The notes under the pieces: generated by a model
What the model was told of the DNA's origin: nothing
The model's database searches: none
The model's input: only the letters and a program-made list of their open reading frames with translations
Origin: an uncultured Thermotogae bacterium
GTDB taxonomy: Bacteria > Bipolaricaulota > Bipolaricaulia > UBA7950 > UBA9294
Length of the DNA stretch: 53,081 bases
Assembly: GCA_964635895.1 (NCBI GenBank)
Contig: CAZWQN010000001.1
Coordinates: 1-53,081, forward strand
Direction: 5' to 3'
Translations under genes and position numbers: made by a program
Shown here: positions 4,000 through 47,526 of the stretch, one piece after another
How the letters are laid out: the number at the start of each line of letters is the position of its first letter
Position numbering within the stretch: the stretch's first letter is position 1

Positions 4000-5072
4000 G
4001 GCTGATCGACCTGCGCAGCGATACCGTGACGCAGCCCACCGAAGGAATGCGTCGCGCCATGGCAGATGCCGTCGTTGGAGACGACGTCTACGGCGAGGAC
4101 CCGACCGTCCGGCGGCTCGAGGAACGGACGGCCGACCTCCTCGGAAAGGAAGCGGGCCTCTTCCTCGCCAGCGGGACGATGGCGAACCTCGTCGCACTCC
4201 TGACGCATGCCGGGCGGGGAGACGAGATCATCGTAGGGGATCTTGCCCACACGTTTCTCTACGAGGTGGGCGGAAGCGCCGCTCTGGGCGGCATCCACTC
4301 CTCGATCCTCCCCAATCGCGATGACGGGACGCTCGACCTCGCCGCCGTCGACGCCGCGGTGCGGAGCCGCGATGACGTGCACGTGCCGCGGACGAAGCTC
4401 CTCTGCCTGGAGAACACCCACAACCGCTGCGGAGGCATCGCGCTCTCCGTCGACTACCTCGGCGGGGCCGCCCGCCTGGCCCAGACTCGAGGGCTCGCCC
4501 TGCACATGGACGGCGCGCGGCTGTTCAACGCCGCTCGCGCTTTGCACGTCGAAGCCGCGGCCCTGTCCCGCGGCGCCGACTCCGTCGCGGTCTGTTTCTC
4601 TAAGGGGCTCGGCGCCCCGGTCGGCTCCACCCTCTGCGGCCCGCGGGACTTCATTCGCGAGGCGAGGCGCTGGCGCAAGACGGTCGGCGGCGGGATGCGC
4701 CAGGCGGGAATCCTTGCAGCCGCTGGGCTGTACGCCCTCGACCACCACGTCGAGCGACTGGACGAAGACCACGCCAACGCGCGAAGACTGGCGGAGGGAA
4801 TCGCCGCGACGCCAGGGCTTTCCTGCCCTCAGTCCCGCCCTGCGGCCACCGCGTGGACGAACCTCGTCTACCTCGCGGTGGATCCCGAGCTGGCCCGGAA
4901 GCGTGGGTTGGACGCCGAGACGCTCTCCGACCGGCTCCGCGAACGCGGCGTCCTTGCGCTCCCCCTCGGCAAGGATCGCCTGCACATGCGGCTCGTGACG
5001 CACCTCGATGTGACCTCCCAAGACATCGACGTCGCCCTCGAAGCCCTCCAGTCCGCGGTGCGCGGGACGTAG
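3996..5072 (+). CDS. ltaE: Low-specificity L-threonine aldolase (PLP-dependent)
   Basis: [30 protein letters not shown] and the lysine motif [12 protein letters not shown]. The GTG start at 3996 overlaps the pcm stop (GTGA). Confidence 0.88.
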
Positions 5073-5227
5073 GTCCGTCCCCTCCCTGAACGACGTCGTC
5101 CCCCTTCGGAGTGGTTGCCCTGTCCGCGCGACGTCGCCGGTCCTACCCTGGCCGTACCGGGTGGCGAGAGCGTCTCTGCCTTGCAGAGATGCTTGACCCC
5201 ACGCATCGCACAGCCGAAGGGGGAACG

Positions 5228-6037
5228 ATGAAGGGGCTAGCGTCGGTTCTTGGGGTGATCCTGCTCAGCGGGTGCGCCGCACTCGCCGGACCTCTTGAAG
5301 TATCCATCGGCGGGGGAGTGTCCGCCGTGTCCCTCGACGCGTATAACGGGATCCTCGAGTCCTGGAACGCGCTGATCGAGCACCTGAACGAGACCTTCTT
5401 GGTTCACCCCGACGTCTCCGGCACCGTCCGAACCCTCGACCTTCTATCGAACGGCATGGGCTTCCAGGTGGCGGAGTGGTACTGGCCTCTCGGCTGGCTG
5501 GCCCTCGGCGCCCGGTTCGAGTACGAGCAATCCAAGACCGCAACCCGTGGGACCTACGTGGGAGCCGGGACGTCGACGATCGACATCGCCCTGGAGTGGC
5601 AGACGATCGGTGTCCTCGCCGGGGCGCGCTTTCTCATCCTAGATGCCGGCGTTCGACTCTCCGGCGACCTCGCCCTCGGGTACTTCCACGGAGCGCTCGC
5701 CCACTCGGTCACGTTCGAGGTCCCGAGTGAGTACACGGACGCCCTCGCGGGCCTTCCGCCGGAAGGCGGCGGTCGCCACACCGGAGACACGGTTGGACTC
5801 GCGGCACAGCTCTCTGTGGACGTTCCCATCGCGGCGGGACTCGGCCTCGGGGCGGCCGTTGGGTATCGCTCGGCCGTGATCGGCGCCCTAACCGATGCGT
5901 CCGATGCGTCCGGCGACCCGCTGGATCTCGACGGGGACGAGACCTCCGAAGAGGCCAACCTGTCTGGTATTGGCGTGCGGCTCACCCTGTCCTTCGACAT
6001 TGACCTCTCCCTCGACGGAGAAGGGGAAAAGGAGTAG
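5228..6037 (+). CDS. Lipoprotein with beta-barrel-like strand pattern (hypothetical)
   Basis: ATG with GAAGGGGGA RBS. Lipobox LLSGC. Amphipathic beta-strand repeats (GLAAQLSVDVPI, GAAVGYRSAVI, GIGVRLTLSFDI). Acidic tail. Confidence 0.7.
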   Translation: MKGLASVLGVILLSGCAALAGPLEVSIGGGVSAVSLDAYNGILESWNALIEHLNETFLVHPDVSGTVRTLDLLSNGMGFQVAEWYWPLGWLALGARFEYEQSKTATRGTYVGAGTSTIDIALEWQTIGVLAGARFLILDAGVRLSGDLALGYFHGALAHSVTFEVPSEYTDALAGLPPEGGGRHTGDTVGLAAQLSVDVPIAAGLGLGAAVGYRSAVIGALTDASDASGDPLDLDGDETSEEANLSGIGVRLTLSFDIDLSLDGEGEKE

Positions 6038-6039
6038 CT

Positions 6040-6705
6040 ATGAAAGGGGCACGACTCTGTCTGTTGCTCGGCGCGACGGCCCTTGTGATTGGGTCCGTCG
6101 GCGGCTGTCTGGAGTTCGGCGTGACCCAGCCGCAGGCGCTGTTCACCGCCTCCCCCGCCGAGCACGTCATCCCGTTCACGGCGAGCTTCGACGGGACTCT
6201 GTCCCGCAAGGCTGGCTGTGACATCGTTTCGTACGTCTGGACGTTCGGTGACGGAGGCGGCGCCACCGGAGCCCTGGTCGACCACGCCTATACGGTGGAC
6301 GGCGTCTACAAGGTAACCCTGACGGTGATCGACGAGCGAGGGGCGTCCGACTCCACCTCGACGCACGTCGACGCCCAGAACCCGCTGCCGACCGCCACGT
6401 TCTCCTACTCGCCGAAGAGCAACATGGAAGGGACGTACATCATCGGCGCGAGCGAATGGGTCACGTTCGACGCCTCGGAGTCGGCCGACGACAGCGGGAT
6501 CACTCTGTACGAGTGGGACTTCGGCAACGGCGACACGGCCGTGGGCTCGATCGTCGAGTACCGCTACAGGATCGCCGGCATCTACAACGTCGTCCTCACG
6601 GTGACGGACGACGACGGAGATTCGTCGAGCTATGTGCAGCAAGTCACGGTCTTCGGCAACTCCCCGTGCGGCGCGGACGACACCGACGGAGGGACGTGCT
6701 CATGA
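6040..6705 (+). CDS. PKD domain-containing lipoprotein (2 PKD domains)
   Basis: Lipobox SVGGC. Two PKD signatures (FTASFDG...YVWTFGDG...HAYTVDGVYKVTLTVIDERG and VTFDAS...YEWDFGNGD...YRYRIAGIYNVVLTVTDDDG). Confidence 0.88.
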   Translation: MKGARLCLLLGATALVIGSVGGCLEFGVTQPQALFTASPAEHVIPFTASFDGTLSRKAGCDIVSYVWTFGDGGGATGALVDHAYTVDGVYKVTLTVIDERGASDSTSTHVDAQNPLPTATFSYSPKSNMEGTYIIGASEWVTFDASESADDSGITLYEWDFGNGDTAVGSIVEYRYRIAGIYNVVLTVTDDDGDSSSYVQQVTVFGNSPCGADDTDGGTCS

Positions 6706-7658
6706 TCCGACGACTCTGCGTGATCGCCCTCGTCCTCGCCCCGCTCTTCCTGTCCGGCTGCGTTCTGAACACGATCCTCGACGACGTGGTGAACTCCCTC
6801 CCTCGGTCGGTCATCGACGCCGCGCCCACCCAAGGCGCCGCGCCGCTCACCGTCACGCTCGACGCCCACTTCTCGCATGACGACGACGGATCCATCGTCG
6901 GGTACCGGTGGGACCTCGGCGACCCTGCCGCGGCCACCGGAGCCCAGCTTGGCTCGACGTGCACGCACACCTACCAGTACCCGGGGACGTACTTGGTCAA
7001 GCTGTCGGTCGTCGACAACGAGGGAGCGACGGACTCCCAGCAGATCGCGATCGTCGCGACGAACGCACCCCCCGTCGCGCAGGCGACGGCGAGCAACTCG
7101 GCCCCCTACCCGGGAGACCCCGTGACGTTCGACGCGTCCGACTCCTACGATGCGACGGGGACGATCGTGAGCTATGCGTGGACCTTCGGCGACGGCGGGA
7201 CCGGCGAGGGCGTGACGGCGGCCCACACGTACTCCAAGGAAGGAAGCTATACCGTGAGGCTGACTGTCACCGACAACGAGGCTGCATCGTCGGACACGAC
7301 GCTCGTGGTGGACGTCCGGGTGGGGTCGAGCAACTGCGGCGACGGTGATTGCGGCGACTCGTACACCCCGCTCGCCGTGATCACGGGCTTGCGCAACGGC
7401 TGCTCCAACTACCATACCGTCGGCAGTCCCGCCACGTTCGACGGCCTCTCCTCCCGATCGGAAGGCGGAAGCATCGTCCGCTATGAGTGGGACTTCGGCG
7501 ACGGCTCCACGGGCAGCGGCAGCACCGTGAGCCACACGTACGCCACCAGCGGCACGTTCGTCGTGAGGCTCACCATCACCGACGAGGCGGGAGCAGTGGG
7601 AACGGGTTCCGGCTACGAGAAGGTGCGCTTCCCATCAGATGGAGGCATCTGCCCGTAG
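6702..7658 (+). CDS. PKD domain-containing lipoprotein (3 PKD domains)
   Basis: ATG 6702 overlaps the upstream stop (ATGA). Lipobox FLSGC. Three PKD units with WDLGD/WTFGDG/WDFGDG cores. Cys-rich linker NCGDGDCGD. Confidence 0.88.
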   Translation: MIRRLCVIALVLAPLFLSGCVLNTILDDVVNSLPRSVIDAAPTQGAAPLTVTLDAHFSHDDDGSIVGYRWDLGDPAAATGAQLGSTCTHTYQYPGTYLVKLSVVDNEGATDSQQIAIVATNAPPVAQATASNSAPYPGDPVTFDASDSYDATGTIVSYAWTFGDGGTGEGVTAAHTYSKEGSYTVRLTVTDNEAASSDTTLVVDVRVGSSNCGDGDCGDSYTPLAVITGLRNGCSNYHTVGSPATFDGLSSRSEGGSIVRYEWDFGDGSTGSGSTVSHTYATSGTFVVRLTITDEAGAVGTGSGYEKVRFPSDGGICP

Positions 7659-39813: not shown

Positions 39814-39836
39814 CCGCGGGTGCGCCGCCCGGCAGA

Positions 39837-39861
39837 GAAACCGGGACACAAACCCTATTTC
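39837..39861 (+). repeat. REP copy (imperfect palindrome GAAACCGGGACACAAACCCTATTTC)
   Basis: Read directly. Can form a ~9-bp stem with loop ACACAAA. Confidence 0.85.
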
Positions 39862-39893
39862 TCCCGAGTCTGCGGCCACCCGAGTCGGAGCAA

Positions 39894-39918
39894 GAAACCG
39901 GGACACAAACCCTGTTTC
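39894..39918 (+). repeat. REP copy (GAAACCGGGACACAAACCCTGTTTC)
   Basis: Differs at 1 nt from the copy at 39837. The period is 57 bp. Confidence 0.85.
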
Positions 39919-39990
39919 GCGCGAGCCCCGGCTGCCGGAATGGAAATGCGACGAGCCCCACATCTCCTTACCTTTATGCTATGATCGTGC

Positions 39991-40647
39991 ATGCCGCGCA
40001 TTGGGCGGATCGTCATCCCGGGCCTCGCGCACCATGTCACCCAACGCGGCGTGCGCCGGATGAGCGTCTTCTTCACTGACGCAGATCGTCTCATGTACCT
40101 TCACCTCCTCCGCGAGCAGGCAGATCGGGCAAACCTCCACTTCGTTGCCTGGTGTCTGATGCCCAACCACGTGCATCTCATCGCGGTCCCCGAACGTGAG
40201 ACGAGCCTCGCGAGGGGCATCGGCGAGGGCCACCGTCGCTACACGTGTGCCCTCAACCAGCGCGAGGGTTGGCGGGGCTACCTCTTCCAGGGGCGGTTCT
40301 ACTCCTGCCCGCTGGAGGGAGCGCATGTCGTTGCCGCTGTGCGATACGTTCTGCGAAACCCAGTTCGCGCAGGAATGGTCGCCCAACCTTGGGAGTACGA
40401 GTGGTCGAGTGCCCGATGGACCGTCGGATATACGTCAGCAGATCCCTTGGCGGAGCGCACGCCTCTCACGGACGAAGTCGGCGACTGGAAGAGCCTTCTT
40501 CGCGAGGAGCCGTCCGAGGGCGACGTTCTTCGCCGCCATACGCGGACAGGAAGGCCTCTTGGCAGTCCCGCGTTTGTCAGGCAGCTGGAGGACCTCACCG
40601 GCCGAGTCCTTGAGCTACGCTCACCGGGGCGCCCGCCGCGGCATTAG
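39991..40647 (+). CDS. REP-associated tyrosine transposase (RAYT, Y1/IS200-like HUH transposase)
   Basis: HUH motif LMPNHVHLI and Tyr motif RYVLRNPVRAGMV. 218 aa, single gene with no tnpB. Flanked by REPs. Confidence 0.88.
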   Translation: MPRIGRIVIPGLAHHVTQRGVRRMSVFFTDADRLMYLHLLREQADRANLHFVAWCLMPNHVHLIAVPERETSLARGIGEGHRRYTCALNQREGWRGYLFQGRFYSCPLEGAHVVAAVRYVLRNPVRAGMVAQPWEYEWSSARWTVGYTSADPLAERTPLTDEVGDWKSLLREEPSEGDVLRRHTRTGRPLGSPAFVRQLEDLTGRVLELRSPGRPPRH

Positions 40648-41595
40648 GGTTTGTGTCCCGGATTCCTCGACGAGCCTGCCGACGTCGAGCGGCTCGGGCT
40701 TCGACGGGTCACGGACGAGAGACAGCGCGCCCTTCGGGCACTTCGAGACGCACACGCCGCACCCCATGCAGCGGGCCTCGTCGACGCGGACCGCCGTCTC
40801 TCCCATCTCGAGCGCCCCGAACGGGCACGCCTCGACACACGCGCCGCAGCGGACACACGACGTCTCGACAACGCGGCTCACGTAGCCGGACGACGCAAGC
40901 ATCGGTGTCCCGTGTAGGAAGGACTGCATCGCGCCGCAGCAGCACGAGCAGCAGTTGCAGATCGCGTAGAACCGACCGAGCATCGCGTCCTTGAGGAAGG
41001 CGTGGTGCACGTGGCCACGCTCGTGTTCGGCGCGCAGGATCTCGGTCGCCTCGGTCTGGGTGACCCAACGCGACGTCTCCGGCTGGTGCTCGGCGATGAA
41101 GCTCGCGAACGGCTCCCCCACGATCAGGCACACGTCGAGCGGCAGGCACGGTTTCTCTCTTGCCGAGCGACACGGACACTCCAGCGCGACGATGTGGTCG
41201 GGATGCTTGAGCACGATGTCGCGTGCGGCGGGGTATGGGATCACCTGCTCGAGACCGCGCAGCTCGACGTCCACATCGAGAGTGACGAGCCGCTCCGCCG
41301 CGTCAAGCGGCATCACTTTCCCGTGGTAGTGGTCGGCGAACGCGTTGTGCCCTGCTTGCGTCCCGCCCTTCCTCCGAGACGCCATCCACAGCCCGAAGTA
41401 GGCGATCGGCCGCATCCAGAATCGAGTTGACTTCGGCCGGATCGCCGTGCCGATGTACTCGTACGGCCACCGCCCGTAGATGTAGGCGTGCACGAAGTCG
41501 AGCAGCGAGTAGCCCTCGAGCTTCCGCCCTTCGCGGTAGAACGCACGCGTCGATGTTCGGACGAGTCGCCACCTGCCTCGCGCTTGCATCATCAC
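40621..41595 (-). CDS. 4Fe-4S dicluster domain-containing protein with an additional Cys-rich motif
   Basis: Two ferredoxin motifs (CVRCGACVEACP, CMGCGVCVSKCP) plus CNCCSCCCG and CPC. The C-terminal 9 codons overlap the RAYT 3' end and the REP. Confidence 0.8.
   Translation of the reverse strand: MMMQARGRWRLVRTSTRAFYREGRKLEGYSLLDFVHAYIYGRWPYEYIGTAIRPKSTRFWMRPIAYFGLWMASRRKGGTQAGHNAFADHYHGKVMPLDAAERLVTLDVDVELRGLEQVIPYPAARDIVLKHPDHIVALECPCRSAREKPCLPLDVCLIVGEPFASFIAEHQPETSRWVTQTEATEILRAEHERGHVHHAFLKDAMLGRFYAICNCCSCCCGAMQSFLHGTPMLASSGYVSRVVETSCVRCGACVEACPFGALEMGETAVRVDEARCMGCGVCVSKCPKGALSLVRDPSKPEPLDVGRLVEESGTQTLMPRRAPR
40645..40665 (-). repeat. REP copy, inverted orientation (TAGGGTTTGTGTCCCGGATTC)
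   Basis: Reverse complement of the core CCGGGACACAAACCCTA. It starts at the RAYT stop codon. Confidence 0.85.
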
Positions 41596-41661
41596 CTCCC
41601 ACTGGATCGAGCCATCACAGAGCGCTCCCCATCCTGCCCAGCCTGTTCGGCGTCACATCCA

Positions 41662-42411
41662 TCATCCGTGCCCCTCTTGCCGCCCTGATCGTCGCCACGA
41701 GAGAGACAGCACATGCCTGGGGCAGACGTCGACGCAGCGTGCACAGAGAACGCACTCGGAGTTCGACATGCGGTCTTGTTGCACCATTCCCTGAACGTCG
41801 AGGCCCATTGGGCAAGCACGGCTGCACGCGTCGCAGGCAACGCATGCCAGAGATCTCGCACGAAGGCGCGGCCCAGGCAGCCGCAGGCGATCGCGAAGCG
41901 CGCGCCCCAAGATCATGAACGGCGCCATCCAGCAGAGCGTGTGGCAGAATCCGCGTCGCCCGGCCCAGAGCGTCAGCCCGACAACGAGAGCCAGCACCCC
42001 GGCGAGCACCACCAGGCTGTAGACGCCCGAGACTGAGATCCCATGCCACGTCTGGTAACCGAGCTCGACGCGCCGCAGGCCTCCGGCCTTGACGGACAAG
42101 AACACGATGACGCCGAGCCACGGAAGCCACACGACGTACTTCACGCCGTCGAGGAGGCGCCAACGGAATGGCCGGTCACGAAGTCTGCTCGTTCCCTCCG
42201 CAATCGCGCCCGCAGGGCAGACCCATCCGCAGAACGCCCGGCCGAAGCCAAGGGCGAAGAGCAGCTGCGCGCCGAAGAGAACGAGGCTCCCGCTGGCAAT
42301 CCCCTCGCTTGCGGCCTGCAGCACAAGGTACGGCGACAGATAGTAGAACGTCACTGGAATGAGAAGGCCTGACACGGCCAAGACCATCGATCGAACGCGC
42401 TGACGAGACAT
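41662..42411 (-). CDS. Membrane-bound 4Fe-4S binding protein (NapH/MauN-like polyferredoxin)
   Basis: TM helices with the FCGWVCP motif. C-terminal CVACDACSRACP and CVLCARCVDVCP. Confidence 0.8.
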   Translation of the reverse strand: MSRQRVRSMVLAVSGLLIPVTFYYLSPYLVLQAASEGIASGSLVLFGAQLLFALGFGRAFCGWVCPAGAIAEGTSRLRDRPFRWRLLDGVKYVVWLPWLGVIVFLSVKAGGLRRVELGYQTWHGISVSGVYSLVVLAGVLALVVGLTLWAGRRGFCHTLCWMAPFMILGRALRDRLRLPGPRLRARSLACVACDACSRACPMGLDVQGMVQQDRMSNSECVLCARCVDVCPRHVLSLSWRRSGRQEGHG

Positions 42412-42464
42412 CCCTACATCACCTCACGGCCGACTGCTCGAACCGTATACCGCGCGCAGCGCCG

Positions 42465-42881
42465 TCATCGCTTGGCCGGCGGGACGAACGCGGAGTCGTC
42501 CACCGGCGCGCCGAATTCCTCCCGGGCGATCTTGAGCAGGAGCTTCCTGTGGCAGGGCTTGTCGTTTCCCTCGTAGCAGATGAGGAAGATGTCGCGCGTC
42601 TTCGCCCGCTCCGCGAGATCCTTGAGCCGGGCCACCGCCGCAGGGTCGTTCTTGACCTGCTCGCGGAACCGGGCTTCGTAGTTCGACTTCGCCCACGCGT
42701 AGTGAAAAGCCGTGGGGTATCCCTCGCCAGGCTTGAACTTCGCCTTCCACTCGTTGAAGTCGTCGAGCAGCTCCTTCGACGGCGCGATCTCATCGTTCCC
42801 CCGCCCGTGCATGACGAGCACGTACTCGGCGTTCTTCGGAAGCCGATCCTTCATGCTCAGATACGTTTGTCGCAGCGCCAT
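42465..42881 (-). CDS. DUF488 family protein
   Basis: ~138 aa with LAPS.EL, the F...Y..E motif and the CYE....CHR cysteine-histidine signature. Confidence 0.75.
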   Translation of the reverse strand: MALRQTYLSMKDRLPKNAEYVLVMHGRGNDEIAPSKELLDDFNEWKAKFKPGEGYPTAFHYAWAKSNYEARFREQVKNDPAAVARLKDLAERAKTRDIFLICYEGNDKPCHRKLLLKIAREEFGAPVDDSAFVPPAKR

Positions 42882-42963
42882 GCTTGACCCTTTCTGGGGC
42901 CGCGCCGCTGGACGAGGAGCGTCCCGTCCCCGCGGCGGCTCAGCCTCCCCTTCACGTCTTCAG

Positions 42964-44310
42964 CTACTCGCCGGAGTCCTCCACCACCTGCGGCGCTTCG
43001 ATCGTCACGGGACCATTCACGTCGGAGAGCTCCATCGTCCAGAGCGCCGAGCCCTCGTTTCCTTCCTCATCGATGGCCTTCGCCGTGAAGCGATAGCGAA
43101 CCGGATACCCTGCCTCGGCCATCCAGACATCTCCGGAGGCCTCCGCGACGTTGACGTCCTCGCTCTGCATCCAATCGCTGTACGTCGATGTATAGTGCCG
43201 TGCGGGAACCCCGTTCACTATCTCCGTTCCAACATACGTGGACGTCGTCCCGACGCCCTCCGCCAGCTCCGGCCAACTCGTCGACGGCGCGAACACGACA
43301 ACGGCCTGGGACACGAGCTCAGCGACCATCGTTGGGACGGGCGTCCACGTCTCACCCTCCCGCATCCAGGCCTCATTGCCGATGCGGATGATGCCGAACT
43401 CCTCGTCCGACTCCAGGTCTTTCCAGCTCACCATCTGGCGGTCGGGCCCCGCGACAGCGCCGCGCATCTCGATCGATCCCGATTCCGGCTCCCCCTCGAC
43501 TTTGCCGGTGAACGAGAACACGGTGACGTAGCGGTAGCTCTGCAGCCCCGCCAAGGCATCCACCGACTGCGCGAAGGCGACATCCGAAGCCGCGACGGCC
43601 TGATCGCCCTGCGCCTTCGCCGCGTCCACCGCGGGCGCAACCGGAGGCGCGGGAGAAGGCGCCGCCGCAGCCGCTGTCGCCACGATGGGCGCCGTTTGGA
43701 CAGCAGTCCCTGCGGCAAGCGCCGGAACAACGGTCCTCGCCGCGGGAGATTCCGCCGCAGGGGCTGTCGCCGTGGCAGCAGGCGCCGCGGCTTCCGCCGC
43801 AGGTTGACCCGCGGGACCTGGAACCTCCGGAGACTCGGGAGGCGGCACCACGGCCGCTGGCGTCACGGCAGGCCCCGTCTGGACTGCGGCCGCTGCGACG
43901 AACTCCGACACACTCGCAGAAGCCGTCGCCGGCGCCGCTGCCGCAGGAGGCGATGGTAGCGGTAGCGGCGCTGGCGGCGGAGTCTCTGCCGGCGCGGCCG
44001 CAGGAGGTGTCGTGACCGCAGTGGCTGTCACTTCTGGAGTCGGCGCTCCCGGAGCTGGTCCAGCAGGCGACGGCGCGGCAGACACTGGAGCCGCCGCCGT
44101 GGAGGCTCCGGCCACCGGGGTGGTCGTGGCCGCCGCAGGCGGCGTCGGCGCGACAGCCGCAGGAGCCTTGGTCGTGGTCGAAGTTGCTGTCTTCGGCGCC
44201 GGCGAGCTCGCAGGCTTCCGGCTCGACGTGCAGGCCACTACGGTGAGAAGCAGCGCCAACGCGAGGATCGCGAGCCCCGCGCACGTGACGATCACGGTTC
44301 TTCGTCTCAT
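42964..44310 (-). CDS. Lipoprotein with a ~220-aa Ala/Pro/Thr-rich linker and a C-terminal globular domain (hypothetical)
   Basis: RBS GAGAGGGGG. Lipobox TVVAC. Low-complexity stretch (roughly 43560-44230). C-terminal ~200 aa of mixed composition with no domain recognised. Confidence 0.72.
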   Translation of the reverse strand: MRRRTVIVTCAGLAILALALLLTVVACTSSRKPASSPAPKTATSTTTKAPAAVAPTPPAAATTTPVAGASTAAAPVSAAPSPAGPAPGAPTPEVTATAVTTPPAAAPAETPPPAPLPLPSPPAAAAPATASASVSEFVAAAAVQTGPAVTPAAVVPPPESPEVPGPAGQPAAEAAAPAATATAPAAESPAARTVVPALAAGTAVQTAPIVATAAAAAPSPAPPVAPAVDAAKAQGDQAVAASDVAFAQSVDALAGLQSYRYVTVFSFTGKVEGEPESGSIEMRGAVAGPDRQMVSWKDLESDEEFGIIRIGNEAWMREGETWTPVPTMVAELVSQAVVVFAPSTSWPELAEGVGTTSTYVGTEIVNGVPARHYTSTYSDWMQSEDVNVAEASGDVWMAEAGYPVRYRFTAKAIDEEGNEGSALWTMELSDVNGPVTIEAPQVVEDSGE

Positions 44311-44466
44311 CCTAACCCCCTCTCTTCCCGAGGTCGAAGAGCAGACCCCCGCTCTCCTCGTCCATGCCAGAGGGCGGGCCCGCTCTCCTCGCTTGGTCCG
44401 AGAGCGGACGTCCCACTCTAGCCACCGGCCACGGTGCTAGACAAAGCGCACTCGCACCGGCCGGTT

Positions 44467-44521
44467 GGGGACACAACCCAATTCGCAACGGAGACGATCG
44501 GCGAATCGGGATTGCGTCCCC
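44467..44521. repeat. REPIN-like doublet (two inverted REPs)
   Basis: GGGGACACAACCCAATTCGC (44467-44486) and the inverted GCGAATCGGGATTGCGTCCCC (44501-44521), separated by 14 nt. Confidence 0.8.
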
Positions 44522-44550
44522 GTGCGGTCGACCCGCAACGGAGACGATCA

Positions 44551-44569
44551 GCGAATCGGGATTGTGTCC
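44551..44569 (-). repeat. REP copy (GCGAATCGGGATTGTGTCC)
   Basis: Part of a 35-nt unit GCAACGGAGACGATC[G/A]GCGAATCGGGATTG[C/T]GTCC duplicated with a 50-bp period (44485-44519 and 44535-44569). Confidence 0.8.
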
Positions 44570-44601
44570 TTCGCACAGGCGGTCCGTAGCGCAGACAGCC
44601 C

Positions 44602-44620
44602 GCGAATCAGGTTGTGTCCC
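44602..44620 (-). repeat. REP copy (GCGAATCAGGTTGTGTCCC)
   Basis: Read directly. Same family core GGGACACAACC in inverted orientation. Confidence 0.75.
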
Positions 44621-44662
44621 GCAACCGTTGACGGCGGCCACATCGTCCTCTACTCTGCGCAC

Positions 44663-45358
44663 ATGCCAAAGCGCGTCCTGGTCATCGACAACTCGACCCA
44701 TCCCGCCACCTATCGCCCAGTCGACGAGTGGTCGCGGAACTTCAGTCGGGTGCCGTTCGATGTGGTCCACGTCCCGTCCCGCGAGCCCGTCCCGCCCCTC
44801 GATCGATACAGCCATCTCCTCATAACCGGGTCCGAAGCGTCGGTGTGTGATCCCCAGAATTGGTTCGACGTGGAGGCCGAAGCCATCCGTACTGCCGTGG
44901 AGCGAGGTCTCGCCGTGCTCGGCAGCTGTTTCGGCCATCAGATGCTCGCGTGGGCCCTCTCCGGCCGCGGGTACGTGCGCCGCGCGCCGACCCCCGAGCT
45001 TGGCTGGGTGACGATCGATATCCTCGCGCCCGATCCCCTGCTCGCGGATCTGCCGACGCCGTGGCACACGTTCGCCGCGCACCTCGACGAGGTTGTCGAG
45101 CCCCCTGCGCCGTGGCGTGTTCTTGCCGCCAGCCGAGCCTGCGCCGTGCAGGCCATGCGCTACGGAGACCGCCCGATCTGGGGAATCCAGCCTCACCCGG
45201 AAACCTCGCCCGACGAAGCCAGGACCCAGATGCGGGCGGGGATCAGCCAGCACCCCGAGTACGAGCGCGAGATCCGCGCCGCCATCGCGTCGCCCGTCCG
45301 CGACGACCGCACCGCCCCGAAGCTCGCCGCCGCGTTCCTCGCCTGCCGCGCAAACTGA
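44663..45358 (+). CDS. Class I glutamine amidotransferase-like protein
   Basis: Nucleophile elbow GSCFGHQ and IWGIQPHPE (His/Glu of the triad). Start at ATG 44663. Confidence 0.85.
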   Translation: MPKRVLVIDNSTHPATYRPVDEWSRNFSRVPFDVVHVPSREPVPPLDRYSHLLITGSEASVCDPQNWFDVEAEAIRTAVERGLAVLGSCFGHQMLAWALSGRGYVRRAPTPELGWVTIDILAPDPLLADLPTPWHTFAAHLDEVVEPPAPWRVLAASRACAVQAMRYGDRPIWGIQPHPETSPDEARTQMRAGISQHPEYEREIRAAIASPVRDDRTAPKLAAAFLACRAN

Positions 45359-45393
45359 GGCGCGAAGACAAGGTACGTGTCCCCCTCGTCGTA

Positions 45394-45446
45394 GGGACAT
45401 GACCCGATTCGCATCCGCGTCTCGCGCAAATCGGGATCGTGCCCCC
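45394..45446. repeat. REPIN-like doublet
   Basis: GGGACATGACCCGATTCGC (45394-45412) and the inverted GCGCAAATCGGGATCGTGCCCCC (45424-45446). Collinear with the doublet at 44467-44521. Confidence 0.75.
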
Positions 45447-45472
45447 AGTGTTCCTGCAACGCAGGTCAGAAT

Positions 45473-45488
45473 GCGATTTGTGTCCCGG
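45473..45488 (-). repeat. REP copy (GCGATTTGTGTCCCGG)
   Basis: Read directly. Followed by the partial TTTGTGTCC (45489-45497). Confidence 0.7.
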
Positions 45489-45508
45489 TTTGTGTCCATC
45501 GCGCTCGA

Positions 45509-45532
45509 GATAGGGTTTATGTCCCGGGTTTC
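45509..45532 (-). repeat. REP copy nearly identical to the RAYT-flanking REP (GATAGGGTTTATGTCCCGGGTTTC)
   Basis: Compared with the reverse complement of 39837-39861 (GAAATAGGGTTTGTGTCCCGGTTTC), a few differences. Confidence 0.8.
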
Positions 45533-45548
45533 TGCGGCAGACACAGCC

Positions 45549-46229
45549 TCACGCGAGACGCCGGATGCGAACCTCGATTTCGGGATGGTCGCGCAGGAGC
45601 GCGACGATGCGCGATGTGTCGGTGTCTCCGAAGTGGTACGGGTAGAGGAGCTTCGGCCGGATCGCGACCGCGGCGTCGGCGACCATCTCCGGCGTCATCG
45701 TGTACGGCAGATTCATCGGCAGGAAGGCGACGTCGATGTCGCGCAGCGCCTTAAGCTCGAGCGTGTTCTCCGTGTCGCCGGCGACGAGCACCCGCAAGTC
45801 GCCGAATGTGAGGATGTAGCCGTTGCCCTCGCCGCAAGGGTGGAAGGGATCTCCGCTCTCGCGTTTGTGGAGCAGGTTGTACGCCGGGACCGCCTCGACG
45901 CCGAGGCCCTGCACGACGGCCGTGTCGCCGTTTCGCATCGTCGTGCCGCCCTGGATCGCCCCCTCGCACAGCGCCGTGTGGACTACGCTCGTCGTCTTCG
46001 TACGGATGTGGGCCAGCGCGCCGGGGTCAAGGTGGTCGCGGTGCTCGTGTGTAATGAGGATCACATCCGCCTTCGGGAGCGTCGAGTAGTCGGCCACGCG
46101 GCTGAACGGATCGACATACACGTTCTTTCCCTCGTAGCGGAAGAGGAGCGACCCGTGCCCGAGGAACGTGATCTTCAAGTCCCCCTGCGACGTCTTGATC
46201 GTGTCTGTCTCAAACCCTTGCACCTGCAT
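45549..46229 (-). CDS. MBL-fold metallo-hydrolase
   Basis: THEHRDH metal motif. ATG 46229 with GGGAGGTG RBS. Confidence 0.85.
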   Translation of the reverse strand: MQVQGFETDTIKTSQGDLKITFLGHGSLLFRYEGKNVYVDPFSRVADYSTLPKADVILITHEHRDHLDPGALAHIRTKTTSVVHTALCEGAIQGGTTMRNGDTAVVQGLGVEAVPAYNLLHKRESGDPFHPCGEGNGYILTFGDLRVLVAGDTENTLELKALRDIDVAFLPMNLPYTMTPEMVADAAVAIRPKLLYPYHFGDTDTSRIVALLRDHPEIEVRIRRLA

Positions 46230-46373
46230 CCGCCCACCTCCCAAGTCGGCTCGCCCTCATCGTCTCCGACCAGTCTATCCGGGTCGCGCCGCCGAGTGGA
46301 GATGCGACGCGTGCCCCCCGATCCTCCACAGACGCTTCACAGCGTGCCCGCACGCGCGGAGTATGGTGCCGTC

Positions 46374-47321
46374 ATGGTCAAGAGACGCATCGCTCGCCGA
46401 TGGAGGGTCGCCCTGTGGATCGTGGGAGCGCCGGCTCTCGCCGTCGGCGGCCTCGCCCTCGCGCTCGTCTTGTCGACACCCTCGCCGCCCGCCGACTTCG
46501 TGCCAACCGTCGCGCGAAAAGAGATCCCCGCCGGCTGGGTCTCCGCCGACGTGCCCGTCGCCAGCTCTCCTGTGGCACGCACAGACGAGCCGGCCGCCGG
46601 CTTGGCCATGCCGTATGTCACCACGGGGAAGCTCGCGCTCTTCGCGAACGGGAAGCCGTTCGGAGAGGAAACGTACGAGCTGCGCATCGCGGAAGAAGGC
46701 ACGACGCTCACTTCGCGTGGGCGCTTCTGGTTTAAGGTCGTCCTCGCCACCGTCCAGGTTTCCTTCGAGCAGACGCTTGAGGCGGACTCCGACCTCCGGC
46801 CCATCCTCTACGTCGCGGAGTTCCACGCCCCCTTAGGCATGGATCGGAGCATTCGCGCGGCCGTCGCTAGCGACCGGCTCCTCGTCGAGCGGTCGGGAAG
46901 AGAGGAGGAGATCCAGATCGATCGAGATCGGACGTTCACGCTCGGCACGTTCAGCACGTACGCCCTCCTGCCCCAGCTGTTCGCGTTGCGCCGGAACGCA
47001 GACTCGGCGTCGCTCCAGGCCATCGTGCTCGGCGGCCCTCCGAGCCAAGAGGCGGACGCCGCAGGCACCCTTCCCCTCATCACCGTGCAATACGCCGGGA
47101 CAGCGCGGCTTCGTGCTGGACATTCCGTCTCCGCCGGGGACTTCGTCCTCGACGTCGACCACTGTCGTATCTCCAGCGCCGAGGGAGAGAGTGACCTGTA
47201 CGCCCGCGGCGCCGAGTTCCTCGCGTTTCGCGCCGGTGACGAAGACAACGTGCTGTGGGTCTACCGAGCCGACTTCTTCCCCAACGGCGTCGAGATTGTC
47301 GAGCAAGCGCCGTCGCCGTAG
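46374..47321 (+). CDS. Membrane-anchored hypothetical protein
   Basis: N-terminal TM helix (WRVALWIVGAPALAVGGLALALVL). This is the only plausible part of the 742-aa ORF 45093-47321. No domain recognised. Confidence 0.6.
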   Translation: MVKRRIARRWRVALWIVGAPALAVGGLALALVLSTPSPPADFVPTVARKEIPAGWVSADVPVASSPVARTDEPAAGLAMPYVTTGKLALFANGKPFGEETYELRIAEEGTTLTSRGRFWFKVVLATVQVSFEQTLEADSDLRPILYVAEFHAPLGMDRSIRAAVASDRLLVERSGREEEIQIDRDRTFTLGTFSTYALLPQLFALRRNADSASLQAIVLGGPPSQEADAAGTLPLITVQYAGTARLRAGHSVSAGDFVLDVDHCRISSAEGESDLYARGAEFLAFRAGDEDNVLWVYRADFFPNGVEIVEQAPSP

Positions 47322-47431
47322 CCCCCATCCTGCGGGGCGACCCGCTCCAGCACCGCGCCAGGGACCCACAGGGCAAGCGGCGATGCCGCGTACCTAGACT
47401 CCCCATTCTTACGGGTGTACAGAGCTGAGGT

Positions 47432-47526
47432 GCGTGTCCCCAGATCGCTGCGCAAGAGCCATTGGCAACCCCGGCCGCCGCGTTACATTGCTCAAGACCG
47501 CGTGCGCGTGTGTGTCCCCCGATCTC
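47432..47526. repeat. Two direct copies of a GTGTCCCC[A/C]GATC-containing motif
   Basis: GCGTGTCCCCAGATCGC (47432-47448) and GTGTGTGTCCCCCGATCTC (47508-47526) in a convergent intergenic region. Confidence 0.6.

Follow-up and report, generated by a model that had tools for sequence, protein, structure and literature searches.

TIRYTs are transposases that resemble the RAYTs, the tyrosine transposases associated with repetitive extragenic palindromes (REPs), and that have inverted repeats at their flanks in place of REPs; the motif GGGGWSAS is common to many of these repeats, and some form moderately abundant families that occur as singles, dimers and clusters (PMC3733652). They have been classified as subclass 2.1, with a C-terminal extension and a YxxxNP signature, and no REP-like sequences were found near the genes of this subclass (Quentin et al. 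2018, bioRxiv 10.1101/279083). For the Group 1 RAYTs ~12 occurrences of the flanking 16-mers have been reported (Bertels et al. 2017, PMC5581495). Here we describe a repeat family in a 53,081-nt stretch of DNA (contig CAZWQN010000001.1, in what follows the window) from a small, GC-rich genome of the phylum Bipolaricaulota, where clusters of short repeats occupy both spacers flanking a class-I glutamine amidotransferase gene and further copies border a Y1/HUH transposase gene 4.7 kb away. These clusters are probably accumulated non-autonomous inverted-repeat elements of the single-copy transposase, itself a TIRYT- or 'TIRtron'-type relative of the REP-RAYT systems. The repeats are of a known, ordinary bacterial kind in a new lineage, and we found no such report in the literature for the phylum.

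The closest described system is the TIRtron/TIRYT (Di Nocera, De Gregorio & Rocco 2013), with which the locus shares a Y1/HUH gene flanked by non-REP inverted repeats with a GGGGWSAS head, moderately abundant singles, dimers and clusters, a protein that is longer than the RAYTs by virtue of a C-terminal extension and the class-2 YxxxNP signature. It differs in that Bipolaricaulota are not among the published examples that we found, in that two to three sub-types of repeat co-exist with one detectable transposase, and in a recurrent composite of one hairpin of sub-type B and one unit of sub-type A. The agreement of the head with the published motif is complete in the B units and in most A units of contig C37, which carry GGGGACAC, and extends to seven of eight positions (cGGGACAC) in the units beside the transposase gene.

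The assembly from which the window comes, as its contig C1, comprises 1.45 Mb in 146 contigs (66.6% G+C, estimated 86% complete); it is labelled G000 below, and its nearest relative is the genome labelled G004. The named homologues of the window's proteins belong to Candidatus Bipolaricaulota. A repeat finder, a search with a degenerate 12-mer and one with a profile were used to locate copies of the repeat, and the three approaches agreed.

Results

Both spacers flanking the amidotransferase gene (231 aa, 44663-45358, + strand; Pfam GATase, E 2.4e-15) hold clustered repeat copies, and every copy listed in a preliminary description of this DNA was recovered. The left spacer (44311-44662), between the divergent lipoprotein gene at 42964-44310 (- strand) and the amidotransferase gene, contains copies at 44467-44486 (+), 44501-44521 (-), 44551-44570 (-) and 44602-44620 (-). 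The right spacer (45359-45548) separates the amidotransferase gene from a convergent gene for a metallo-β-lactamase (MBL)-fold hydrolase (45549-46244, - strand; Pfam Lactamase_B_3, E 6.4e-25) and contains copies at 45393-45412 (+), 45426-45446 (-), 45467-45491 (-) and 45504-45532 (-). The unit is ~20-25 nt long with a GGGGACAC head, and is found both as singles and as inverted dimers of ~55 nt. Sub-type A, (gaaacc)GGGACACAAACCCTATTTC, also borders the transposase gene; sub-type B, GGGGACAYGAYCCCGATTCGC, is ~74% like A and occurs mostly as hairpin dimers. Chance is excluded as the origin of the repeats because shuffled sequences give far fewer matches, both for the 20-mer GGGACACAATCCCGATTCGC at up to 3 mismatches (3 matches versus 0.00) and for the 12-mer head (23 matches versus 4.55 +/- 2.34, maximum 11), with 13 of the 23 head matches falling within 39843-45525. 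Three matches to the 12-mer head at 428-835 (GGGACTCGAACC, GGGACTTGAACC) look by their sequence like tRNA T-arms and not like repeat units.

The preliminary description had linked this dispersed intergenic family to a Y1 transposase gene, and the flanks of that gene in the window and in its relatives bear this out. The gene, at 39991-40647 (+ strand), is present in one copy in the assembly and encodes a TIRYT/RAYT-like Y1/HUH tyrosine transposase of 218 aa (Pfam Y1_Tnp, E 1.2e-8). Upstream of it, within 39836-39921 (+), lie two A units, 39836-39863 and 39893-39921 (26.0 and 22.6 bits), and an inverted A unit at 40638-40666 (-; 20.4 bits) abuts its stop codon, a position that is also filled in orthologous loci. 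Several orthologues in family-level relatives, with 55-78% identity, carry their own unit variants at the equivalent flanking positions (GGGACACATACCCTATTTC in G007 and G001, GGGACACAATACTCATTTCC in G020), on both sides in G016, G007, G020 and G001 and on one side in G009, G031, G004 and G023; no flanking units were detected at the orthologues of G025, G032 and G019. In G016 the transposase and amidotransferase genes are located on one contig. Among 8 homologues the residues H60-V-H62 and Y119-VLR-N123-P124 (YxxxNP) do not vary. In the alignment with 4er8, a chain of E. coli TnpA_REP, Y119 falls on Y115, and the C-terminal extension of ~85 aa is conserved (TGRPLG...LE..TGR).

The left cluster begins with a diverged B hairpin of 55 nt at 44467-44521 (+), made up of an arm (44467-44486), a 14-nt loop (44487-44500) and a second arm (44501-44521), with one compensatory pair relative to the canonical B hairpins. 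A 36-nt local duplicate of the loop and right arm lies at 44534-44570 (-; 94% identical to 44484-44519, spacing 50; repeat-finder family D1), and an outer inverted unit at 44602-44620 (-) pairs with 44468-44486 at 89% complementarity (pair I2). The duplication had been taken as a 35-nt tandem with a period of 50 bp. A 36-nt stretch of loop and right arm does recur with this spacing (44484-44519 / 44534-44569), but not in tandem, the 14-nt fillers being unrelated; Tandem Repeats Finder made no call on 44300-45600, and the '50-bp tandem repeat' is therefore only a partial duplication of 36 nt. In the right spacer a partial unit head, GGGGGACACGTACC, at 45372-45385 (-), 13 nt past the amidotransferase stop, pairs with 45394-45401 in a small hairpin (z -2.0). 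The right doublet at 45393-45446 (+) is a B hairpin of 54 nt with a 13-nt loop between arms 45393-45412 and 45426-45446, its left arm equalling that of the hairpins on contig C62 over 21 nt. A degenerate inverted unit (45467-45491) with a partial head (45487-45498) occupies 45467-45498 (-; 9.9 bits), and the A-like unit GGGACATAAACCCTATCTC at 45504-45532 (-; 19.5 bits) lies 23 nt from the MBL-hydrolase stop and has a positional counterpart in the same-genus genome G003. This last copy had been called almost identical to the unit next to the transposase gene; with 17 of 19 core positions matching, it is similar to that unit and not nearly identical. A lone unit of a third sub-type, C (GGGACACRTACYYNANCTC), is found at 47422-47440 (-), downstream of msrAB.

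Both doublets fold into REPIN-like hairpins, as had been proposed, with RNA z scores relative to shuffles of -4.14 for the left doublet and of -3.27 (+) and -4.09 (-) for the right one, and a DNA z score of -2.6 for each. They are therefore more stable than shuffled controls both as RNA and as DNA, the preliminary description having named a lack of such stability as a ground on which its interpretation should be given up. The entire 154-nt left cluster closes as one long hairpin through its outermost arms (RNA z -5.3). Taken singly, the units show no significant self-palindromy (z -1.4 and +1.5), so that hairpins are formed by the inverted dimers only and the term REP, in its strict sense, does not fit. 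Neither the downstream half of the right cluster, 45465-45536 (z +0.9), nor the whole right spacer (z -1.1) folds more stably than shuffles. On contig C37 A units occur as inverted dimers with perfect or near-perfect stems of 19 bp (z -4.9 to -9.1), and the RNA z scores of the family's hairpins range from -3.3 to -9.1. Six B hairpins from G000 and G004, which belongs to the same genus, have their arms, one bulged base and one T:G position in common, their loops are unlike in sequence and in length (11-15 nt), and one position shows a compensatory change. Since the asymmetry of the B dimer is constant while the loops vary, the B dimer copies as a unit. An ungapped scan for 19-nt inverted pairs overlooked every B hairpin because the arms differ by a 1-nt bulge, and alignment was used in its place.

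It had been suggested that the amidotransferase gene was mobilised as a unit, and the comparison with related genomes speaks against this. G003 keeps the order orf42419, lipoprotein, amidotransferase, orf46275, and its left spacer measures 179 nt versus 352 nt in the window, the two sequences being collinear on either side of a gap of ~170 nt that coincides with the cluster. As judged from this alignment, the left cluster is a clean insertion of ~170 nt relative to G003, placed in a stationary gene neighbourhood, the repeats thus having come to the amidotransferase gene. The presence or absence of individual copies in related genomes, a comparison that the preliminary description had proposed, thus differs at this site, with the left cluster in the window and none in the left spacer of G003. 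The amidotransferase gene stands at its ancestral position, with orthologues and conserved neighbours in G003 and in G016, a genome of another genus, where the spacer between the lipoprotein and amidotransferase genes contains just one hairpin, which belongs to another sub-type.

On the right side, the orthologue of orf46275 follows 58-70 nt after the amidotransferase gene in G003 and G001, and the window has the cluster and the MBL-hydrolase gene where these two genomes go directly to that orthologue. A MAFFT alignment of the right spacer with G003 and G001 was not meaningful because the window carries an extra gene there, and tblastx synteny was used in its place. When judged by eye, the spacer of 58-70 nt in G003 and G001 appears to hold degenerate arms of sub-type C. 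The last ~15 codons of orf46275 itself (46275-46826, - strand; window 46295-46325) appear to derive from a degenerate GGGGRCRC-type unit, and the 3' end of its G003 orthologue (locus L014, 2246-2290) likewise seems to be a unit of this type, a repeat arm that would have been recruited into coding sequence.

The position of the MBL-hydrolase gene was compared in G000, G001, G003 and G004. In G001 it lies on the same contig, 5.5 kb farther along; in G003 it is on another contig, and in G004 it comes after msrAB. From this synteny, the gene of variable position is the MBL hydrolase and not the amidotransferase, and the region is rearranged throughout the genus. The MBL-hydrolase gene was found in five genomes of the genus, but not in G002, and in all five repeats of the GGGGACAC type lie within ~25 nt past its stop. 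In G000 and G004 they take the form of a B hairpin or cluster; G001, G003 and G005 have dimers of type C. First after the gene in both G000 (45504-45532) and G003 comes an A-like unit, ...CCCTATCTC. Hairpins occur on both sides of the gene in G005, and its 5' side is without a unit in the window, G001 and G003. A conserved segment of ~55 nt (GAGTAGACTGG...GGGAGG) lies upstream of the gene in the four of four genomes with a readable 5' flank.

No copies in the genome are more decayed than those around the amidotransferase gene, the profile scores being 7.1-19.5 bits in the two spacer clusters, 20-26 bits in the transposase flanks and 18-28 bits for the copies on C37 and C62. Given these low scores, and given that 45504-45532 has a counterpart beside the same gene in G003, the two spacer clusters are old and decaying, and the earlier notion that they were recently proliferating does not hold for them; only the copies on C37 and C62, being near-identical, suggest recent spread. 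A B-type cluster in G004 (contig C29; locus L028, 2390-2575) has an internal tandem duplication of its own, of ~85 nt, comprising loop, arm, spacer and arm, and shows runs of 7-10 G at the unit heads. The parallel between this duplication and the 50-bp one in the window points to local duplication as a regular mode of cluster growth. Contigs C109 of G001, C29 of G004 and C50 of G016 start or end inside the amidotransferase gene; as contigs of relatives break within or beside these genes, the clusters may help to break metagenome assemblies.

The profile search of the whole assembly gave 25 matches at E<0.01, all of them on three of the 146 contigs (7 on C1, 9 on C37 and 9 on C62), which together amount to 5% of the assembly bases, and no match below E 0.4 elsewhere in the assembly. 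At up to 2 mismatches 16 A units are present in the genome. Pattern counts place A-type units in 15 of 24 genomes of the same family, 1 of 4 of the sister family and 0 of 12 of other families of the class, with reversed-pattern controls all zero; B-type units are confined to the genus of the window. The relative G020, assembled as one contig, carries at least 35 units around the whole chromosome, many as inverted pairs. Within the genus, A and B dominate in G000 and G004, and C in G001 and G005. Counts at up to 2 mismatches showed no units in G003, in which no orthologue of the 218-aa transposase was found (93%-complete assembly), and suggested a rule of no repeats without a transposase orthologue; we abandoned it when a broader pattern gave five C-type units there.

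A composite of a B hairpin, ~25 nt and an inverted A unit recurs three to four times on C62 in one orientation, with the composites at 5572 and 7052 near-identical, and the right cluster of the window (the B hairpin and the A-like 45504-45532) has this architecture plus extra degenerate pieces. Over 4400-7160 of C62 composites of the same orientation separate two gene pairs, one VapB-like/PIN-domain (4949-5508, - strand) and the other consisting of a nucleotidyltransferase with an ArsR-type helix-turn-helix (HTH; 5779-6408, + strand) and an overlapping open reading frame (ORF) of 149 aa without a Pfam match (6386-6835, + strand), possibly its HEPN-type partner. A contig of G004 with four A units in the same orientation has no counterpart in the window's genome at 45% identity or more. 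The gene pairs of C62 and this unmatched contig therefore indicate that the repeats concentrate in variable, accessory DNA.

Two observations concern the start of the amidotransferase gene. The longest ORF in its frame, 44465-45358 (297 aa, TTG start), spans the entire left repeat cluster. Orthologues begin at an ATG equivalent to 44663, and automatic gene callers may over-extend the gene through the cluster. A TAnnnT hexamer ~7 nt before this ATG is conserved (TACTCT in the window, 44640-44665; TACCCT in G003 and G016, loci L014 1480-1503 and L024 1478-1503), with no obvious ribosome-binding site in between; the transcript may be leaderless, with a promoter immediately downstream of the left cluster.

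Discussion

We propose that the transposase recognises arms or hairpins on single-stranded DNA and would copy them into intergenic DNA, that new copies would settle beside old ones, and that clusters would also enlarge through local duplication of loop plus right arm. The elements reached the spacers of a stationary amidotransferase gene and later decayed there. If, as 3' hairpins, they stabilise or terminate the convergent transcripts of the amidotransferase and MBL-hydrolase genes, this would be a by-product. Several points weigh against this explanation. The confinement of all copies to 5% of the assembly is not predicted by it and contrasts with the chromosome-wide spread in G020, and G003 carries its few units without a detected orthologous transposase, at 93% completeness. 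The transposase scores 65.6 bits against the NCBIfam model of REP-associated tyrosine transposases (NF047646, REP_Tyr_transpos), below the cut-off of 80 bits, and for its 85 C-terminal residues no Pfam match was found at E<=10, to HTH and DnaA_C domains included. B units flank no transposase gene that we found, their dependence on the enzyme being suggested by the 74% similarity to A and by co-location. Activity of the transposase on these repeats is proposed here, no TIRYT activity having been demonstrated in the literature that we found. Finally, the occupation 3' of the MBL hydrolase in five of five genomes could mean selection for a hairpin and not neutral accumulation.

The last point leads to the view that selection keeps the clusters as cis-acting structures, the right one as a bidirectional terminator or 3' stabiliser and the left one as an insulator of divergent promoters. 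We regard this as unlikely, and it is compatible with a mobile origin. The right doublet is stable in both transcript orientations, the site after the MBL-hydrolase stop is filled throughout despite changes of sub-type and neighbouring gene, and a hairpin of another type sits in the lipoprotein-amidotransferase spacer of G016, in another genus. Set against this, a promoter/terminator scan found no hairpin in either cluster that is followed by a T-run, as an intrinsic terminator requires, the left spacer of G003 lacks a cluster between the same two genes, and no other copies in the genome are as degenerate as those here, with neither 45465-45536 nor the whole right spacer exceeding shuffles in stability. 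A useful hairpin, a preferred landing site, or an old insertion that is overwritten from time to time would each fit the lasting occupation of the site 3' of the MBL-hydrolase gene and, in two genera, of the lipoprotein-amidotransferase spacer. We consider it improbable that clusters of the same orientation serve as ends between which the Y1 transposase, or recombination between clusters, moves an enclosed cassette of one or two genes. Both clusters flanking the amidotransferase gene have the same polarity, a forward arm and then inverted arms, composites of one orientation separate the VapBC and nucleotidyltransferase-containing pairs of C62, and the MBL-hydrolase gene occurs in three contexts within the genus, always with 3' repeats and in G005 with repeats on both sides. 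However, the amidotransferase gene has stayed where it was ancestrally, the left cluster being a simple insertion, no 5' unit accompanies the MBL-hydrolase gene in the window, G001 and G003, and we saw no duplicated cassette, no pair of empty and filled sites with junctions exactly at the hairpin edges, and no circular junction; ordinary rearrangement in a variable region fits the data equally well.

That the system is a classical REP/REPIN-RAYT one, with a Group 2/3 RAYT and palindromic REPs of the GTAG type, appears very improbable, even though the Y1 transposase is single-copy, vertically kept and flanked by its own repeats, the dimers are inverted with conserved arms and free loops, and the clusters are intergenic. 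The repeats have neither a GTAG nor a CGTC tag, single units are not significant palindromes, ~25-30 copies stand against tens to hundreds, the 218-aa protein has a C-terminal extension, gives 20.8 bits to TnpA_REP and stays below the NCBIfam RAYT cut-off, and the head matches the TIRYT motif instead. The 'REP/RAYT' label of the preliminary description is imprecise for the units, which are non-palindromic and have a GGGGWSAS head as in TIRYT inverted repeats; these two features define a TIRYT-type, REPIN-like system and not a classical GTAG REP. An origin without any mobile family, in transcription-factor operators, a CRISPR-like array, an RNA gene or chance, can hardly be credited. Local clustering, with some repeats within a divergent promoter region, would fit it, but spacing and orientation are irregular, shuffles rule out chance, the family flanks the transposase gene in many genomes and an orthologous site differs in presence or absence. 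An Rfam search at E<=1 over 39.5-46.5 kb gave nothing inside either cluster and two chance-level matches outside them, and a known RNA identity was accordingly rejected; CRISPR, integron attC and operator-site readings were rejected because of the spacing, the lack of signature boxes and the tie to a transposase.

The REPIN-RAYT systems described from Pseudomonas and Enterobacteria (Bertels & Rainey 2011, PMC3116915; PMC5581495) resemble the locus in that the transposase is single-copy and inherited vertically, in that inverted dimers are copied as whole units whose arms are conserved and whose loops vary, and in that the repeat types are intergenic, lineage-specific and clustered. The locus differs in a copy number ~10 times lower (about 25-30 in an 86%-complete genome), in units that are not palindromes and lack GTAG, and in a protein distant from those RAYT groups. 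Its agreement with the Group 1 RAYTs is indirect and lies in protein length and in low copy number, 16 A units being close to the ~12 flanking 16-mers. Members of subclass 2.1 have a C-terminal HTH or DnaA_C-like extension, and the extension of ~85 aa found here has no such Pfam match; no REP-like sequences were reported near those genes, whereas the flanking units here clearly belong to a dispersed family. In bacterial interspersed mosaic elements (BIMEs) two defined REP types, Y and Z, take turns, joined by set linkers, and host proteins bind to these elements. With the E. coli REP/BIME system and its TnpA_REP (PMC3333891; PMC3479197) our locus has in common the HUH motif, the aligned catalytic Tyr, mosaic arrays between convergent genes and a proposed single-strand cleavage and rejoining, the sequences being unrelated. 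Miniature elements derived from IS200/IS605 likewise combine a Y1 transposase acting on subterminal hairpins with small non-autonomous derivatives, but their left and right ends differ from each other and lie on one strand, and their transposase genes are multi-copy, in contrast to the inverted-repeat ends and single-copy gene here. The layout of C62, with imperfect-hairpin elements of ~100 nt in one orientation between cassettes of one to two genes that include toxin-antitoxin pairs, resembles that of integron attC arrays; the likeness is one of layout only, as the R''/R' boxes (RYYYAAC/GTTRRRY) are missing and the associated enzyme belongs to the Y1/HUH transposases. Contig C62, which is short, showed no gene for an IntI integrase, the rest of the genome not having been searched for IntI. 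Taken as a whole, the system would work like REPIN-RAYT and is better filed with the TIRYT type.

Concluding Remarks

The comparative data suggest how clusters form, by clean insertion, then local duplication of loop and arm, then decay, and some intergenic sites hold repeats in one species after another, with sub-types that differ among them. It is of practical concern for annotation that repeat clusters generate spurious long ORFs such as 44465-45358. There is a slim prospect that clusters of the GGGGACAC type edge small gene cassettes (the MBL hydrolase, VapBC and the nucleotidyltransferase pair) that are shuffled between intergenic sites; if true, this would amount to a TIRYT-driven, integron-like exchange of cassettes in very small genomes. 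TIRYT-type transposases are numerous, and in the literature that we found their action on their own flanking repeats has never been demonstrated. The lineage described here offers a compact test case, with genomes of 1.5-2.4 Mb, one intact enzyme gene, ~25-30 copies in two to three sub-types, and many sequenced relatives in which enzyme and repeat have diverged together.

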